Assembly: GCA_966211335.1 (NCBI GenBank)
Contig: CBIHNF010000001.1
Location: 1,242,847 to 1,306,846 of the forward strand
Origin: an uncultured Alphaproteobacteria bacterium
GTDB taxonomy: Bacteria > Pseudomonadota > Alphaproteobacteria > Micavibrionales > UBA2020
Length of the DNA: 64,000 nucleotides
Reading direction: 5' to 3'
How positions within the stretch are numbered: position 1 is the stretch's first letter; each line of letters opens with the position of its first letter. A program made the translations under genes and the position numbers. Shown here piece by piece: positions 53,363-59,936 of this stretch. The notes below the pieces were generated by a model. It was not told the DNA's origin. It searched no databases and saw only the letters and a list, made by a program, of their open reading frames with translations.

Positions 53363-53815
53363 ATGTTTGACAAATTTTTCGATAAACTGAATGCTTTCGA
53401 GGCCTTTCACCGCGATAGCCTCATCGAAATCCGCAAGTTCATGCGGCATGAAGACAGCAAGGCAGAAGTGATGGTCGCAGGACGGCCCTATGCCCTGCAC
53501 GACTGGAGCATGGGCGGAGTCCTGTTCGCAACGCCGAACAACGACTGGAACATAGGCGGTGTTTATTACGACGCCCATCCGGTTCCGGAGCTGAAGGCGA
53601 ACGATACGCTGAAGCTTGCCCTGCGCTTCCACACCCTTAGCGAAACAATCGAAGTCCCGTTGGAAGCGACGATTGTCCGCATCGGCAGCCGCGGGACGGT
53701 CGCGAAGTTCAACAACCTTTCCCAAAGCGCCCGCCGCCGGCTGCAGCGCGTGCTCGACTTGCGCAATGCCGAGGAGTTCCTGCAATCGCAGGCACCGCAA
53801 AGCATGGCGGCGTGA
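53363..53815 (+). CDS. PilZ-domain protein (putative c-di-GMP receptor)
   Basis: RKFMR (RxxxR), then 18 residues, then DWSMGG (DxSxxG), in a 150-aa protein. GGAGA SD lies 5 nt upstream. Confidence 0.6.
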   Translation: MFDKFFDKLNAFEAFHRDSLIEIRKFMRHEDSKAEVMVAGRPYALHDWSMGGVLFATPNNDWNIGGVYYDAHPVPELKANDTLKLALRFHTLSETIEVPLEATIVRIGSRGTVAKFNNLSQSARRRLQRVLDLRNAEEFLQSQAPQSMAA

Positions 53816-54025: not shown

Positions 54026-54649
54026 TTGGACAATAACGCCACCGCATTTGACCATGTGATCGAAGACCTGAAAGCCGGCAACGCAAGGTTTCTTGCCGGC
54101 CAGTCGATACAGTCGTCGGAGTCATCACTTGCCAAGCTGAAGGAATTCGGCAAGCACGGGCAGCTGCCAAAGGCCATCGTGCTTTGCTGCTCCGACTCGC
54201 GCGCGCCGGTCGAGATGATTTTTGACCAGGATATCGGCGACCTTTTCGTCATCCGCGTCGCCGGAAATATCGTCGCACCCTCGCTGGTGGGCAGCGTTGA
54301 ATTCGCGGCCAGCATGTTCGGCACCAATCTGGTGCTTGTCATGGGCCACACCCGCTGCGGCGCGATCAAGGCGACGCTTGACCATATTTCCGGCGCGGCC
54401 ATTTCATCGGAAAACATCCATGACATCGTCAGCCGCATCCGCCCGCATATCTTCCCCATCACCCAACTGGCGGGGGTTTCCACAGAAGACAAAATGGTCC
54501 GTGCTGTCGAGGCAAACGTGCGTGCTTCCGTCAGCCAATTATCGCATTCCAGCCGCCTTATCGAAGGGCTGGTCGCCAAAGGCGATATTAAAATCTGCGG
54601 CGCGGTGCTCGACCTCGAAACCGGCCGCGTTGATTTTATCGAAGTGTAA
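54026..54649 (+). CDS. Beta-class carbonic anhydrase
   Basis: CSDSRAPVE and GHTRCGA zinc-ligand motifs. TTG start with AGGGGA 8 nt upstream. Confidence 0.88.
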   Translation: MDNNATAFDHVIEDLKAGNARFLAGQSIQSSESSLAKLKEFGKHGQLPKAIVLCCSDSRAPVEMIFDQDIGDLFVIRVAGNIVAPSLVGSVEFAASMFGTNLVLVMGHTRCGAIKATLDHISGAAISSENIHDIVSRIRPHIFPITQLAGVSTEDKMVRAVEANVRASVSQLSHSSRLIEGLVAKGDIKICGAVLDLETGRVDFIEV

Positions 54650-54660
54650 GCGTGACGAAT

Positions 54661-54697
54661 GAAAAAGCGCCGCCGGATTTTTCTCCGGCGGCGCTAT
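54661..54697 (-). terminator. Strong terminator closing the minus-strand four-gene operon (also downstream of the carbonic anhydrase gene)
   Basis: 12-bp stem AGCGCCGCCGGA (54666-54677) / TCCGGCGGCGCT (54684-54695). On the minus strand it is followed by TTTTTC. Confidence 0.8.
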
Positions 54698-54715
54698 TCA
54701 TTTGGAGGCCAATTC

Positions 54716-55300
54716 TTAGCGCGAGCGACGTGCGCGCAAGATATTATCATCGTTGATCGAGCTGGTGCCGAGCGGCAGCGTATCTTCCGACGTTGCGCCA
54801 GTGCTGGACGACAGTGATCCGGATCCAGTTGTGCCGGGGAGGCCGCTAGACCGCGTCATGGCGCTACCGGTGGAGCTGGATAGGCCTAACCCGCTCAAAG
54901 TATCCGACGCGGTCAGGCTGACGGGCCCATTGGGCGTTGCCGCGCCCGGGATTGAGCTGTTCACGCCAAGCGTGCCACCGGTGCTGCCCAGAGGGGAATT
55001 TGCGGCGGCTGAAGCGTTGCCGCTAAATTCACTGGTCGAGGCACCGTTTAGGTCTGCGGGTGTTCCATTCGCGGTAGATGCGCCAGCGCGTGTCGAAACG
55101 CCGGTACGTCTGCTTTCGGTGCCTGCTGCCGTGCGGCCGGAGGCAGCCGAAGAACTTCCGCTCATACCTGCCGTGGAACCGGAGGATGCCGCGGCACCAC
55201 CGCCTGAGCCGCCGCCGCCACCGCCACCAGCAGCCATAGCTGAGGCGCTTACAAGAAGGGCAGCAGAAAGTGCAAGGGAAAGTACTTTATTGAAATTCAT
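54716..55300 (-). CDS. Secreted Gly/Ser/Thr/Ala-rich low-complexity protein
   Basis: Signal peptide MNFNKVLSLALSAALLVSASAMA|AGGGGGGGSGGG. The rest is about 170 aa, almost entirely G/S/T/A/N/P, ending in the basic tail ...NILRARRSR. AGGAG lies 6 nt before the ATG. The plus-strand ORF 54753-55316 lacks these signals. Confidence 0.7.
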   Translation of the reverse strand: MNFNKVLSLALSAALLVSASAMAAGGGGGGGSGGGAAASSGSTAGMSGSSSAASGRTAAGTESRRTGVSTRAGASTANGTPADLNGASTSEFSGNASAAANSPLGSTGGTLGVNSSIPGAATPNGPVSLTASDTLSGLGLSSSTGSAMTRSSGLPGTTGSGSLSSSTGATSEDTLPLGTSSINDDNILRARRSR

Positions 55301-55363
55301 GACGTGCTCCTATTGACTGTTCCACAAATCAACAAGCCGGTCGCGGAGTGGTTCCAGTAAGAG

Positions 55364-56251
55364 CTATTTTTTCGTGCGGGTGGGGTACCCGTAGCCGAAG
55401 TCATGCTTTAAATAACGGGCGCAGGTTTCGTTAAAAAAAGCCTCGTCCGCCGGCGGGAAATAGTCGGTAAGGGGCTTTTTGGGGGCCGTGCGGACAACGG
55501 TTGTCGAGACTTCCGGGTTGGGCTTTTCTGCCATTTTCTCGCGGCTGTTGGCGGCGACGGCTTCGGTCAAGAGGTCGTCCGTTACCTTATTAACACCGAA
55601 AAAGTCACAGACGTTTTTCAACGCGCCTTTGCCATCGGCTTTCATGTCTTCATAGCGCAGAGCCATCACTTTGCCGTGATTATTCTCCAGCACATCGCCC
55701 CATTCATTCATGAAGCGGATGCGCGACCAGATATCGCTATAGAAGGTTTTCTGCGCCACATCGCCGCGCAGGTAGGTCGAGAAATCGCAATTATAATCGC
55801 CCTTGAATCGCTCGTAGTGAGAGACGAGGGATTCTTTCAGCTCTCGCACCAGCACGAGATAGCGGGGGAAGTGAAGGCCGGGAATGGCGAGCGTCAGCGC
55901 ATGCGGGTAGCCGTGCGAGTGGACAATCTGCGGGATCTGCTTGTATTTGGGCGGCGACTTGGTGTGGCCGACGACGCTGTCATCCTGAATGTGCTCGAGC
56001 GCTGGCAGGTTGTAGAGGCGGATAAGCACCGTCGACAGCATGTTCTTGATCCAGTGGCTACCGGACTGCTGCATGGAGACGATATGGCCGTCGAAGTTGC
56101 GGTGCGCCAGAAGGCTCGCATTGGTCCAGCGGCGGTTGAGCGTGTAAAGTCTGAAAATCCTGTCCGTGCGGTTCAAGGCCGTGTGCTTTCCAATGTCGAT
56201 TTTGTCAGAATTGGAATTTAGCGACATTTGGCGGTCTTGGAAAGGCTGCAT
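55364..56251 (-). CDS. Sulfotransferase-family protein (cytoplasmic)
   Basis: 5'-PSB-like loop MQQSGSHWIKNML and a 3'-PB-like segment YLVLVRELKESLVSHY. The start is ambiguous: 56251 lies after the M48 stop with AGGAA upstream, and 56290 and 56227 are alternatives. Confidence 0.7.
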   Translation of the reverse strand: MQPFQDRQMSLNSNSDKIDIGKHTALNRTDRIFRLYTLNRRWTNASLLAHRNFDGHIVSMQQSGSHWIKNMLSTVLIRLYNLPALEHIQDDSVVGHTKSPPKYKQIPQIVHSHGYPHALTLAIPGLHFPRYLVLVRELKESLVSHYERFKGDYNCDFSTYLRGDVAQKTFYSDIWSRIRFMNEWGDVLENNHGKVMALRYEDMKADGKGALKNVCDFFGVNKVTDDLLTEAVAANSREKMAEKPNPEVSTTVVRTAPKKPLTDYFPPADEAFFNETCARYLKHDFGYGYPTRTKK

Positions 56252-56264
56252 ATTTCCTGTCAAA

Positions 56265-57074
56265 TCATTGTTTTTTGGGAACCGGAACATCCTTGCAATA
56301 GTGCTTTACCTGCACCCAGTCATCCTTGGTCATGACGGGTTTGGCGTCTTTGTTGTCGAATTCCGCGGCCATTTCGGCGCGGGAGGTGCTGGAGGGGTGG
56401 TCGGAGATGAACTGGCTGGCAATGCCGCCGTCTTCCAGCCGCTCGAAGAATTTGCGAAAGCCGCTGTTATCCACATGCGCGGCCTGCAGGCGGGCAAGGC
56501 CGTCATGGTCGGCTTCGGCTTCCTGCGCCCGGGAGAAGTTGGCGCGCATGAGGAAGTCGGCCGTTTCCGCGCTAGAATCCGCATCGCCGCCAAAGACCAT
56601 GCTGAGGCCTTGGCTGGTCAGCAGGCGGACGAGGATCACCTCCATGATATGGCGGTGGCGCACGTGTTCAATCTCATGTGCCAGCACGCCCGCCGCTTCA
56701 TCCGCCGATTGCGCTTGTGTCAGGAAGCCGGTGTTGATATAGAGCTTGCCGCCAAGGCTTGCGAAGGCGTTGATGGCAGGGTCGCGCACGACTTTGACGT
56801 CGATCGAGAATTCGGCATCCCCCGGCTGCACGGGATAGATGCGGCGAATGAGTTTATCTAGCAGCTTGTCCGCGCCGGGGTTGGCGGTGCAGGCCTGCAA
56901 CGGCAGGTTGAAGGCATCTCTTTCCGCCATTTTTTTTTCCCAGCTCCAGGGAATAGCATGGGCGAGGGGCGTAATGCCGAGCGCGAAGCCTGCCGCAAGA
57001 AGGCAACCGCAGGCGAGCCACAGTAGACCCTTTAGTTTTGAAGCCTTGTCGCTATGTTCCGCGGCTTCGGTCAT
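56265..57074 (-). CDS. M48-family zinc metallopeptidase, N-terminally anchored
   Basis: HEIEHVRHRH (HExxH) and downstream EAEAD. One N-terminal hydrophobic segment, LLWLACGCLLAAGFALGI. The ATG overlaps the upstream stop (ATGA at 57071-57074). Confidence 0.85.
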   Translation of the reverse strand: MTEAAEHSDKASKLKGLLWLACGCLLAAGFALGITPLAHAIPWSWEKKMAERDAFNLPLQACTANPGADKLLDKLIRRIYPVQPGDAEFSIDVKVVRDPAINAFASLGGKLYINTGFLTQAQSADEAAGVLAHEIEHVRHRHIMEVILVRLLTSQGLSMVFGGDADSSAETADFLMRANFSRAQEAEADHDGLARLQAAHVDNSGFRKFFERLEDGGIASQFISDHPSSTSRAEMAAEFDNKDAKPVMTKDDWVQVKHYCKDVPVPKKQ

Positions 57075-58372
57075 GGGTGATGCTTCGTGTAGGCAATGAA
57101 GGCGTAGAAAATAATCAGGATGACAAAGCCGATGATCCTCATCGGCCCTGCCTGCGAGCGCCTTGCGTTGCTGGCGGTCGCGAGCGCAGCCACGGTATCG
57201 CCGCGCGCGGCTTCCACAAAGGTTTCGCGGTCCTGGATAATCGCCTGCGCCGGCAGGATCGGCTGTTTGGTCGTGAGGCCCGGCACGCGTTTTACCGCCG
57301 TGCCGATCGCCATGATTTCAACCAGCCCGCCGCCCATGTCGTAGACGCGGGTTTTAACGCCAATGACTTCATCTGCGTTGCATTTGGTCGCTGCGGTCTG
57401 CAACCGCTCGAAGGCTTTTTCGCGCGCCTCATAGAGCAATTCGCTCAAGGTATTCACCTCGCCGCCGGCAAGGCTTTTCACGAAGGAGCCGATGCCGGAG
57501 GCGAGGCCCAGCGAATAGACGGAAACGCCCATGACAAGCGTGATCGGCATATAGCCGATGTTAACCATGTTCCACAACTCTTCATTGGTCATGTCGGACG
57601 TCACGGGGTCGTGGTTGTAATTCGCCAGCGACGGGTGCGAGGCGGCGGTGCCGAGCATCAGCATCTCCTGCGCGCCAAGGAGCGGCATGATGGAGGTCTG
57701 GATGCCGATGACGGCATTGGCGCCGACTTCACGCGCCGCGTCCTTGATGCGCGAGAGGGCAAGGTGGCGGGTGCGGTCGAAAATTTCGGTATACTGCGGC
57801 ACTTCGCCGCGCTTCAAGCCGCGAAAGGCCCCCGCGATATTGCCGCCGACGCCGATGGAATAGGCAACGTTGCCGCTGACGAAACTTTTCGGCGTGAAGC
57901 CTGAATCAATCTGGCAGTACAGCTGCTGCGCATCGGCGAAGGAGGAAAAGCTCATGGCGCCGGCGGTGTTGTTCGGGTCGTTGACGGTGGAGCCGAAGGC
58001 GAGGAATTCAATATTGCTGCCGTGATTGATGAGGTCGAAGGTGACGCCGGCAAGGCCGACGCCGCCGTAATGCGCCGCTTCCTTCATCATGCGGTCATAG
58101 GCGTTTTTGCGGCCGTCGTAGACAAGCTTGGTGATCTCCGTCACTTCGCCGCCCGCTAGGTTGGAGAGGCCGGCGCCAATGCCGCGCCCGACGCCGAGCG
58201 AGAGGACGTTGTTGCCAAGGCACAGCTGCCCCGGCCGGTAGCCGAGTTTTTCAAGGCAGAAAATTTCGTTGCCGGAGAAGCCGGTAATCTTGCCGTGATC
58301 TTTAATGGGCACTTTGGAAATTCCTTTGCTGAAAAATGCGGAGGCGCACTCGCATTGTTTAGCATGGAACAA
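57071..58372 (-). CDS. Protein with three tandem YbjQ/UPF0145-like domains and a C-terminal TM tail anchor
   Basis: Three modules of about 105 aa each contain G-x-x-x-L-A/K-G/R-GEV...Y...R..A..R......A....ANAVIG-type blocks: NLAGGEVTEITKLVYDGRKNAYDRM, GLKRGEVPQYTEIFDRTRHLALSRI and SLAGGEVNTLSELLYEAREKAFERL. The C-terminus MRIIGFVILIIFYAFIAYT is hydrophobic. Confidence 0.7.
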   Translation of the reverse strand: MFHAKQCECASAFFSKGISKVPIKDHGKITGFSGNEIFCLEKLGYRPGQLCLGNNVLSLGVGRGIGAGLSNLAGGEVTEITKLVYDGRKNAYDRMMKEAAHYGGVGLAGVTFDLINHGSNIEFLAFGSTVNDPNNTAGAMSFSSFADAQQLYCQIDSGFTPKSFVSGNVAYSIGVGGNIAGAFRGLKRGEVPQYTEIFDRTRHLALSRIKDAAREVGANAVIGIQTSIMPLLGAQEMLMLGTAASHPSLANYNHDPVTSDMTNEELWNMVNIGYMPITLVMGVSVYSLGLASGIGSFVKSLAGGEVNTLSELLYEAREKAFERLQTAATKCNADEVIGVKTRVYDMGGGLVEIMAIGTAVKRVPGLTTKQPILPAQAIIQDRETFVEAARGDTVAALATASNARRSQAGPMRIIGFVILIIFYAFIAYTKHHP

Positions 58373-58441
58373 ATAACAAGCTGTTAAAGGGCGCGTTTCA
58401 GTAACGCTGGAAAAAAAAGGAGTGAGAAGTGCGACTCGTTC

Positions 58442-58476
58442 TTAATTGGCAATAAATACGGTATTGAATCAATTAA
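58442..58476. promoter_or_regulatory. Nested palindromes in the AT-rich leader of the four-gene operon
   Basis: TTAATTG (58442-58448) / CAATTAA (58470-58476) enclose AATAC-G-GTATT (58454-58464). They sit about 70-100 nt upstream of the ATG at 58372. Confidence 0.3.
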
Positions 58477-58599
58477 TTAGACGTATTTTTAGCCTTTAAA
58501 AAGGACTATTTCTAAAACAGCTTCCGCGGCATCCCATCTCCCACCGTCGTTTTCTTCCTGGGCTATTTTACAGTATTTCTGGCGGTCACGGCGATAAAA

Positions 58600-59775
58600 T
58601 TACCTGCCGCGCGCAGTCTCTGTTTGCGACGCAGTTACAGGCTCGTCCGGCGCGGCGGCGGCGAGGGCTTTGCGGTCGCCTTCGATGAAAAGGCCGAGGG
58701 GCTGCAGCCGCTCGATACGGTCGCAGATGATCTTGATCATGGCGAGGATGGGGACGGACAATATCGCGCCCGCAAGTCCCCACATCCAGTACCAGAAAAT
58801 CAGCGAGAGGATGACCAGCACGGGGTTGAGCGTAAAGCGCCGCGCCAGCAGGTGCGGCGTGATAAAGGTGCTTTCAATGATATGCACGACAAGGTAGAGC
58901 GCGGCCGGCAGCGCGGCATTCCATGATTCCGAGGTGCCCATGAGACCGACAAAGACAAACAGCGCCGCCGCGAAAAAGGGCCCCGCAATCGGCACGTAGT
59001 TGAGAATAAAGGCGGCCGCCGCCCAGAGCATGGGGTCGCCAACGTCGAGATACCACATGATGAAGAAGGTGGCGAGGCCGACAATCGCGTTCATGATGGT
59101 AATGGTCATGAGGTAAATGGAAATATCCTGCTCGATCTGCTTGAAAATTTCCACCGCCTGCCGCTTGTTGCGGAATTTCGGCAGCGATTCAACGATGCGG
59201 CGCAAAAACGTATCGCCGGACGACAGCATGAAGAACAGCAGCAGTACGATGGTGAACAGGTTGCTGGCAAGGCTCTGCGTCGTGATCATGATCTTGTCGA
59301 CAAGGCGGGAGCCCGGCATGACGACGGTCGTCGTGGCCTTCGGCCCCGTGCCCTTGGTCAGGTCTTCCGCCTGCGCCAGCATTTTCTGCGTATCGGCGAC
59401 AGGCTTGCTGAGGAAGTGCAGCTTGGCCTTTATCTCGGGCAGGTTGTCCGGAATCTGCTGCGCCCAGTTGGCGGCGGGGCCGGCAAGGGCGGAGCCCATG
59501 ACCCAGAGCGCGCCGACCAGCAGCGCGATAATCAGCAGCGCCGCCAGCCGCCGCGGGATGGGGAAATTACCCAGCAGGCGCAGGAAGGGCTGCAGCACCA
59601 GCTTCAGGAAGATGGCGATGACGATAGGGATGAACAGCGTATCGGCAATCTTGAGCGCCGAAAAGAGCAGGATGATGAAAATGCCGCCTAGGAAAAAGGT
59701 GCGAATGGGAATGATGGGCGCATCATCTGCCTCGATAACGCTATCGTTTAAATTCTCGGTTGCCGGTTCAGTCAT
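58600..59775 (-). CDS. AI-2E family transporter (PerM/UPF0118)
   Basis: About 391 aa and 7-8 TM segments, with the family-typical layout. The ATG at 59775 is preferred over the TTG at 59796. Confidence 0.8.
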   Translation of the reverse strand: MTEPATENLNDSVIEADDAPIIPIRTFFLGGIFIILLFSALKIADTLFIPIVIAIFLKLVLQPFLRLLGNFPIPRRLAALLIIALLVGALWVMGSALAGPAANWAQQIPDNLPEIKAKLHFLSKPVADTQKMLAQAEDLTKGTGPKATTTVVMPGSRLVDKIMITTQSLASNLFTIVLLLFFMLSSGDTFLRRIVESLPKFRNKRQAVEIFKQIEQDISIYLMTITIMNAIVGLATFFIMWYLDVGDPMLWAAAAFILNYVPIAGPFFAAALFVFVGLMGTSESWNAALPAALYLVVHIIESTFITPHLLARRFTLNPVLVILSLIFWYWMWGLAGAILSVPILAMIKIICDRIERLQPLGLFIEGDRKALAAAAPDEPVTASQTETARGR

Positions 59776-59936
59776 GAAAGCCTTGATAAATATCAATTTG
59801 CATAATTTTCAAACGCTGGTTTGCGTCAATATGACCTAACCCGCGCGCGGGCTTATCGTTCCATATGGGGGCATAGTGATTGTTATGGCCGCCAAAGAAC
59901 TTATATTAGGAAAGAAGCAGGAGCCGCCCGAAAGCC

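Follow-up and report, generated by a model that had tools for sequence, protein, structure and literature searches.

YbjQ/UPF0145 is a widespread protein family that has had solved structures for some twenty years but still lacks an assigned function; its known members are soluble, about 100 amino acids (aa) long and, in the solved structures, apparently homopentameric (PMC4092069). The M48 proteases BepA, LoiP and HtpX are central in envelope quality control. HtpX possesses several transmembrane (TM) helices, and its active site is on the cytoplasmic side. In the stomatin-NfeD, HflKC-FtsH and LemA-HtpX operons an oligomerising membrane-tethered protein is encoded next to a membrane-anchored protease, often with translational coupling, while among sulfotransferases RaxST modifies tyrosine and RaxX is exported by a transporter of its own. 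Here we analyze positions 54661-58599 of a 64,000-nt stretch of DNA (hereafter the window) from an uncultured alphaproteobacterium (Micavibrionales, UBA2020; contig CBIHNF010000001.1 of assembly GCA_966211335.1), where genes for a triple-YbjQ protein (g1, or YbjQ3), an M48 zinc metalloprotease (g2), a sulfotransferase (g3) and a low-complexity protein (g4) follow one another. An earlier note on this DNA had described four tightly packed genes on one strand, which was confirmed, all of them lying on the minus strand with the stated domains, and had combined them into a single sulfation pathway. The comparison across genomes shows instead that the conserved unit consists of the first two genes only, YbjQ3 and M48, which are found together across many bacterial phyla.

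Comparison with described systems

Each of the three repeats of g1 matches PF01906, the single-domain YbjQ/UPF0145 structures (PDB 1Y2I, 1VR4, and 2GTC) and the DUF74 structure 3QKB. Unlike the known members, g1 is a 413-aa protein in which three fused copies continue into a linker and then an anchor that holds the C-terminus in the membrane. Its Foldseek matches were single-domain YbjQ/DUF74 proteins and RcsF only (probability 1.00 to 1Y2I, 1VR4, and 3QKB), and no solved structure with the triple architecture was among them.

The g2 protein shares the M48 fold, the HExxH motif, the distal Glu and the ‘HP’ motif with BepA, LoiP/YggG and YcaL, and its catalytic domain is predicted to be periplasmic. 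BepA and LoiP also provided its best NCBIfam matches, both far below the cut-off: g2 reached 68.5 bits vs. 570 for BepA (NF052400), with a match covering the protease core only (269 aa vs. a 483-position model, and no TPR domain), and 45.6 bits vs. 365 for LoiP (NF052399), with no lipobox visible. What distinguishes g2 from these two proteins is its conserved N-terminal signal anchor and the presence of a YbjQ3 partner gene in nearly all the loci surveyed. The closest solved relative is the M48 peptidase PDB 3C37 (E 2e-21 over 192 query residues, similar in size with 253 aa), which with about 80 bits does not reach the YbjQ3-linked subfamily, where scores begin at about 165 bits; we know of no partner protein or function for 3C37. 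HtpX, a protein of quality control, is like g2 a membrane-bound M48 zinc protease, but g2 scored at most 19.8 bits against the HtpX cut-offs of 245-422 and, unlike HtpX, has a single TM helix and a domain predicted to be on the periplasmic side.

At the level of gene organization, YbjQ3-M48 follows the same two-gene logic as stomatin-NfeD, HflKC-FtsH and LemA-HtpX, although the protein families are unrelated and, unlike in those operons, the two soluble domains would face opposite sides of the membrane. The likeness to RaxST/RaxX resides in a sulfotransferase gene placed near the gene of an exported peptide; however, g3 resembles the small-molecule enzymes SULT, StaL and Teg12 rather than sulfotransferases of the RaxST/TPST type, and the g4 product lacks Tyr and carries a Sec signal.

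Conservation of the gene pair

YbjQ3 was searched for in one genome per species, relatives were found in 318 stretches, and the best 80 loci were retrieved and checked by tblastn with the window proteins. Within the clade of at least 56% identity that includes the window, an M48 ortholog lies directly 3′ of YbjQ3 in 41 of the 47 loci, and the YbjQ-M48 link that the earlier note had drawn is thereby borne out. This M48-linked clade comprises Alpha-, Beta- and Gammaproteobacteria, Planctomycetales, Omnitrophota, FCPU426, Bdellovibrionota, Desulfuromonadales, Geobacteraceae, Coxiellaceae and Rickettsiales. When the open reading frames (ORFs) flanking YbjQ3 in 74 loci were clustered all against all, M48 (39 loci) was the only conserved neighbor, the other large clusters being antisense shadow ORFs, and on gene-called metagenome contigs the YbjQ3-M48 unit was found amid entirely different flanks. 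Seen from the protease, the M48 subfamily adjoins YbjQ3 in nearly all the loci surveyed, and in a reverse look-up two subfamily members picked at random were each preceded by a YbjQ3 gene.

The two genes are also tightly joined. That g1 and g2 overlap by ATGA at 57071-57074, as reported previously, is directly seen in the letters; over the loci compared, stop and start overlap by 4 nt in eight cases and by 1 nt in six, and most of the remaining junctions are within about 12 nt. The pairwise distances of YbjQ3 and M48 were correlated (Spearman 0.72, uncorrected for phylogeny), with YbjQ3 far more constrained than M48 (mean identity of 66 vs. 44%). Taken as a whole, the pair is very probably a functional unit, for which no literature on a YbjQ-M48 link was found.

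An apparent YbjQ3-M48 fusion of 686 aa in a Coxiellaceae metagenome-assembled genome (MAG; L052:3373-5433) was rejected, as it contains a run of N, i.e., a scaffold gap between two genes. At another locus (L051:7251-8005), a HepT-like/nucleotidyltransferase (MNT) toxin-antitoxin pair occupies the usual position of the M48 gene, and the contig ends soon after.

Features of YbjQ3 and of the M48 protease

The g1 gene occupies 57071-58312 on the minus strand. It had been listed as 57071-58372, with a TTG start at 58372; GTG 58312, resulting in 413 aa, is most likely the true start, because homologs have 412-414 aa, public gene calls give 413 aa, and the AAGGA and GTG are kept in L006, a 93%-identical relative in which the sequence farther upstream diverges and has an indel. 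The YbjQ_1 domains proposed for g1 were recovered by Pfam (PF01906 in three stretches, E 3.9e-44, 149.9 bits vs. a cut-off of 23) at about aa 12-112, 126-226 and 241-343, and the repeats are mutually 25-31% identical. Against the single-domain YbjQ equivalogs of NCBIfam the protein scored 98 bits at most (cut-offs 160-181), and both the g1 architecture and the g2 subfamily lie below every curated NCBIfam cut-off. Homologs of g1 gave more than 2,200 matches, the top 120 having 63-93% identity across very different taxa.

The AlphaFold2 (AF2) model of g1 (pLDDT 81.5, pTM 0.78) presents three alpha/beta modules, a disordered stretch at residues 363-387 and a terminal helix at about 383-410, the hydrophobic TM helix being encoded at about 57083-57142, in agreement with the ‘tail anchor’ described before. 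The C-terminal part thus consists of a flexible linker (aa 363-387) followed by a TQxGP motif, the TM helix and a His-rich end, and nearly all members of the M48-linked clade share this tail in the form (S/A)A..TQxGP, TM helix with a conserved FY, and (K/R)HH. Only 3-6 residues extend beyond the helix, and 27 of 31 M48-linked YbjQ3 proteins have a His within the last four residues, as compared to 2.1% His overall. In the window (57071-57090) and at the equivalent positions of L006-L051, the residues past the helix are strikingly His-rich (KHH, RHH, HHH). The His-rich end may bind metal or form an interface on the periplasmic side. In cyanobacteria and Armatimonadota (L053-L085) YbjQ3 occurs in two forms, one of about 406-412 aa with a TM tail and an LNQP.N motif, the other of about 377-381 aa without tail; L054:5989-7215 and L069:4125-5258 are examples of this group.

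The g2 gene (56265-57074, minus strand) encodes a protein of 269 aa whose assignment to Peptidase_M48 was verified by Pfam (PF01435, E 1.1e-21, 78 bits vs. a cut-off of 20.3), with the sequence HEIEH at aa 133-137 (56664-56678). Across 142 M48 orthologs H133, E134, H137, E185, D189, and H226 are invariant or nearly so, and H226 aligns with the His of the BepA THPL motif. The subfamily counts about 115 proteins of 250-270 aa, after which the scores fall abruptly from 165 to 124 bits, and the listed members have Pfam matches to peptidase families only.

The single N-terminal segment is the only hydrophobic one noted in g2, where a signal anchor is predicted at about aa 17-40 (56955-57026). In the orthologs a K.KG..W motif preceding the hydrophobic helix and a PW..E motif beyond it are both invariant or nearly so, and the same holds for the individual residues in g2 numbering, G16 and W19 on the N-terminal side of the helix and P42, W43 and E46 on its C-terminal side. 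Because an AxA cleavage site is rarely present just ahead of ‘PW’, the segment would be kept as a signal anchor and not removed as a signal peptide. In 123 of these orthologs Cys62 and Cys260 are both present, in 10 both are absent, and in nine only one is found. This co-variation (Fisher 3e-9, with no correction for phylogeny) suggests that the two residues form a disulfide in the periplasm, which would in turn place the catalytic domain there.

The sulfotransferase and the low-complexity reading frame

The g3 gene (55364-56251, minus strand; 295 aa as called) bears the sulfotransferase domains that had been proposed, Sulfotransfer_1 (PF00685, 1.1e-13, 51.7 bits vs. a cut-off of 22) and Sulfotransfer_3 (PF13469, 3e-06). 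Its start position is uncertain. The first 25 or so aa have no counterpart in homologs, residues 1-23 are disordered in the AF2 model (pLDDT 90.6), and the candidate starts are ATG 56290, which overlaps g2, ATG 56251, which was picked by gene callers and leaves a gap of 13 nt, and TTG 56176, where the alignment of homologs begins, with a gap of 88 nt. The M48 stop at 56265 was placed by the earlier note inside or just before the g3 start; the stop itself is correct, and the rest depends on the start that is used. The ‘QQSGSHW’ loop, with G64 and W67 invariant in the family, represents the 5′-phosphosulfate-binding loop. The top Foldseek matches were SULT2A8, SULT7A1, Teg12 and StaL, with SOT16 also among the neighbors, and the sequence and fold neighbors are cytosolic sulfotransferases of small molecules (bile acids, steroids, glucosinolates, strigolactones and, for StaL and Teg12, glycopeptide aglycones), no protein sulfotransferase being found among the sequence and fold matches listed. 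Judging from sequence and model, g3 is presumably a cytoplasmic SULT-type enzyme that acts on small molecules and depends on 3′-phosphoadenosine 5′-phosphosulfate.

Detectable relatives of g3 number 93. All four close orthologs (57-76% identity) reside in Alphaproteobacteria MAGs within a TerD-TerD-sulfotransferase-HAD hydrolase string (L090:4478-7493, L091:4456-7502, L092:5232-7508, and L095:109-3190), which is preceded by gatCAB in all three loci reaching that far upstream; a more distant relative adjoins FemAB-like and aminoacyl-tRNA-protein transferase genes. No literature on TerD in association with a sulfotransferase was found, and the string looks like an undescribed TerD-associated pathway for small molecules. 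TerD or HAD partners of g3 were looked for inside the window and none was found: here the gene is a lineage-specific neighbor of the YbjQ3-M48 cassette, away from its usual partners.

The last frame, g4 (54716-55300, minus strand, 194 aa), is probably a species-specific gene, because it has a ribosome-binding site (AGGAG 6 nt 5′ of the ATG) and opens with a textbook signal peptide of the Sec type (aa 1-23, 55232-55300; AMA/A site, K in the n-region and a 16-residue hydrophobic core), and its product, which beyond the signal peptide is a G/S/A/T-rich low-complexity sequence, may be a secreted protein. The frame has the best codon score of the six and was called by gene finders on four public contigs. 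It could also be a chance ORF in the GC-rich spacer between g3 and the shared terminator, a possibility that we take seriously while leaning towards a gene: the codon log-likelihood is −0.18 vs. 0.45 ± 0.14 for the genes of the window, i.e., 4.4 standard deviations below, the GC content at third codon positions is 0.59 vs. 0.74, and an ORF of 187 aa (54753-55316, plus strand) exists on the strand opposite. Homologs are lacking too, with no match in Pfam, NCBIfam or PADLOC and one weak low-complexity match among 1.84 billion representative proteins in an exhaustive HMMER search. Inside g4 lies also the best Rfam match of the locus, isrG (54997-55223, plus strand; 26 bits vs. a threshold of 100); this match and the antisense ORF look like by-products of GC-rich low-complexity sequence.

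In the pathway drawn by the earlier note the G/S/T/A-rich g4 product was the cargo, sulfated by g3 and trimmed by the M48 enzyme, with YbjQ acting as sensor or chaperone. The common strand, the tight spacing, the absence of an internal terminator and the single strong terminator at the end are in favor of such a scheme, as are the ribosome-binding site and signal peptide of g4 and the stability of the arrangement on four public contigs. The four-gene order was found, however, only on these contigs, whose proteins are identical and which represent the same species, while tblastn revealed neither g3 nor g4 near YbjQ3 in any of the 80 loci. The close orthologs of g3 have their partners elsewhere, in the TerD strings, its fold neighbors are small-molecule SULTs, and it has no signal peptide, whereas g4 would exit via Sec as an unfolded chain; g4 itself contains no tyrosine, the residue that RaxST modifies, besides having an atypical codon usage and no homologs. 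The comparative data thus contradict the proposed roles, the four-part sulfation pathway is not supported, and it is very improbable that all four genes belong to one route. Neither g3 nor g4 belongs to a conserved system; both are additions observed in this species alone, where they are probably co-transcribed with the cassette. In L006, the closest other relative, the contig ends inside M48.

Locus layout and regulatory sequences

The leader and intergenic sequence 5′ of g1 (58313-58599, minus strand) has a GC content of 0.49 vs. about 0.60. It had been described as an AT-rich leader of 227 bp with nested palindromes; the AT-richness was confirmed and inverted repeats are present, though imperfect (58448-58460/58482-58494, 13 nt, 85%), while the length is to be corrected to 287 bp since g1 starts at GTG 58312. 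In the alignment with L006 the conserved parts are limited to a proximal block (58360-58388), the Shine-Dalgarno sequence AAGGA (58322-58326) and the GTG, and the palindromic stretch at about 58442-58494, which has no conservation there, was ruled out as an operator. A GAAAC-N16-TGTT motif is located at 58375-58399 on the minus strand, 87 nt 5′ of the GTG, and L006 has GGAAC-N15-TGTT at the same place; both resemble promoters of the extracytoplasmic function (ECF/EcfG) type. As a general promoter motif G(G/A)AAC-N15/16-TGTT was discarded, since just 2 of 68 loci, those of the window and of L006, contain it (vs. a 1% background), and promoter-like matches overall were at chance level (5 found vs. 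2.4 ± 1.8 expected). A regulatory RNA in the leader was likewise dismissed, with no Rfam match near the gathering score.

The bidirectional intrinsic terminator at 54666-54695 is common to g4 and to a convergent beta-carbonic anhydrase gene. Its 12-bp stem comprises 10 G-C pairs, U-runs are present on both strands, and the predicted folding energy is −34.5 kcal/mol (z −5.66), with none of 200 shuffled sequences folding equally well. The earlier description of a strong terminator past the last gene, with none inside the cluster, therefore stands, this being the sole minus-strand terminator-like site within 54600-58600. The 63-nt gap before AGGAG-N6-ATG at 55300 was confirmed to be free of hairpins (no significant structure, z −0.95), and the g2/g3 junction also showed no significant structure (z +0.56). 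The sequence is compatible with a single transcript spanning g1-g4.

The convergent carbonic anhydrase gene (54026-54649, plus strand), which uses the shared terminator, has as companion on the same strand a gene for a small PilZ-domain protein (53363-53815), while upstream of the leader lies an AI-2E family transporter gene (58600-59796, minus strand) whose synteny is kept only in the closest relative, L006 (81% identity). A known anti-phage defence system was ruled out, PADLOC giving no match for any of five proteins, and so was a mobile-element or plasmid cargo, as tblastn against 72,556 plasmids returned just two remote Streptomyces YbjQ proteins.

Discussion

We hold with moderate confidence that the locus is composite and that its core is a self-contained two-gene cassette, encoding a membrane-spanning YbjQ3-M48 complex by which a periplasmic protease is regulated. 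The topology of the two proteins, their physical association and the direction of regulation are what we infer from the conserved pairing and motifs. The three tandem YbjQ/UPF0145 domains of g1 would reside in the cytoplasm, since the protein has no signal peptide and is anchored at its C-terminus, and would be tethered to the inner membrane by the linker and one C-terminal TM helix. The M48 protein would be held in the same membrane by its uncleaved N-terminal signal anchor, with the catalytic domain toward the periplasm, so that two antiparallel single-pass helices and their juxtamembrane motifs could join the two proteins into one complex. Such a pairing of helices is suggested by the translational coupling, the co-occurrence and the conserved motifs flanking both helices; a physical complex of the proposed kind is plausible, although we would stop short of calling it probable. 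In this complex YbjQ3, a module under strong constraint and probably oligomeric, would position or regulate a periplasmic protease similar to BepA and LoiP, and proteolysis in the envelope would thereby be linked to a state of the cytoplasm. The most specific version, an undescribed trans-membrane device spread over at least eight phylum-level lineages in which an oligomeric YbjQ3 gates or positions the protease via the paired helices, is tentative and on balance doubtful.

Several observations weigh against the regulatory complex. Six loci of the linked clade depart from the pairing, one because the contig stops inside g1 and five with unrelated genes downstream, and an adjacent M48 was found in none of the 33 cyanobacterial and Armatimonadota YbjQ3 loci (51-57% identity), many of which keep the TM tail; YbjQ3 is therefore not strictly dependent on the protease, given these 33 plus five loci without it. 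No fusion of YbjQ3 with M48 was found, neither the Cys co-variation nor the distance correlation is corrected for phylogeny, and no function of YbjQ is established in the searchable literature. The charge around the M48 helix is nearly neutral on both sides, and the orientation of the protease consequently rests mainly on the Cys pair and the KxKG motif. The absence of fusions and the occurrence of YbjQ3 alone in cyanobacteria, Armatimonadota and five loci of the linked clade would also fit two proteins that are merely co-expressed, for instance in an envelope or general stress regulon, and act independently without forming a complex. This we consider unlikely, as the two genes stay adjacent, amid flanks that differ entirely, in at least eight phylum-level lineages, the M48 subfamily is hardly found away from YbjQ3 in the loci surveyed, and both proteins have invariant membrane-adjacent motifs. 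YbjQ3 could alternatively be the substrate or target of the protease, with M48 controlling its abundance or its release from the membrane, as the NfeD protease acts on its stomatin partner. The conserved pairing and translational coupling agree with this relationship, and the conserved C-terminal His (27 of 31) would be at the inferred protease face; but the 3-6 residues past the TM helix offer little for a soluble-domain protease to grip, and a terminal His is also common in the cyanobacterial homologs that have no M48, which makes a substrate role quite improbable.

The YbjQ3-M48 pair is undescribed but simple, being built from known parts, and adds a variant to the theme of a membrane protease that goes with a membrane-tethered partner. 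The negative part of the analysis carries a lesson of its own: operon-like packing in one genome would suggest a spurious four-component ‘sulfation system’, which the comparative data dissolve. The translationally coupled and deeply conserved pairing offers a concrete handle on the YbjQ family and on a dedicated M48 subfamily and, if the proposed relationship is true, would provide the first functional context for YbjQ/UPF0145 proteins.

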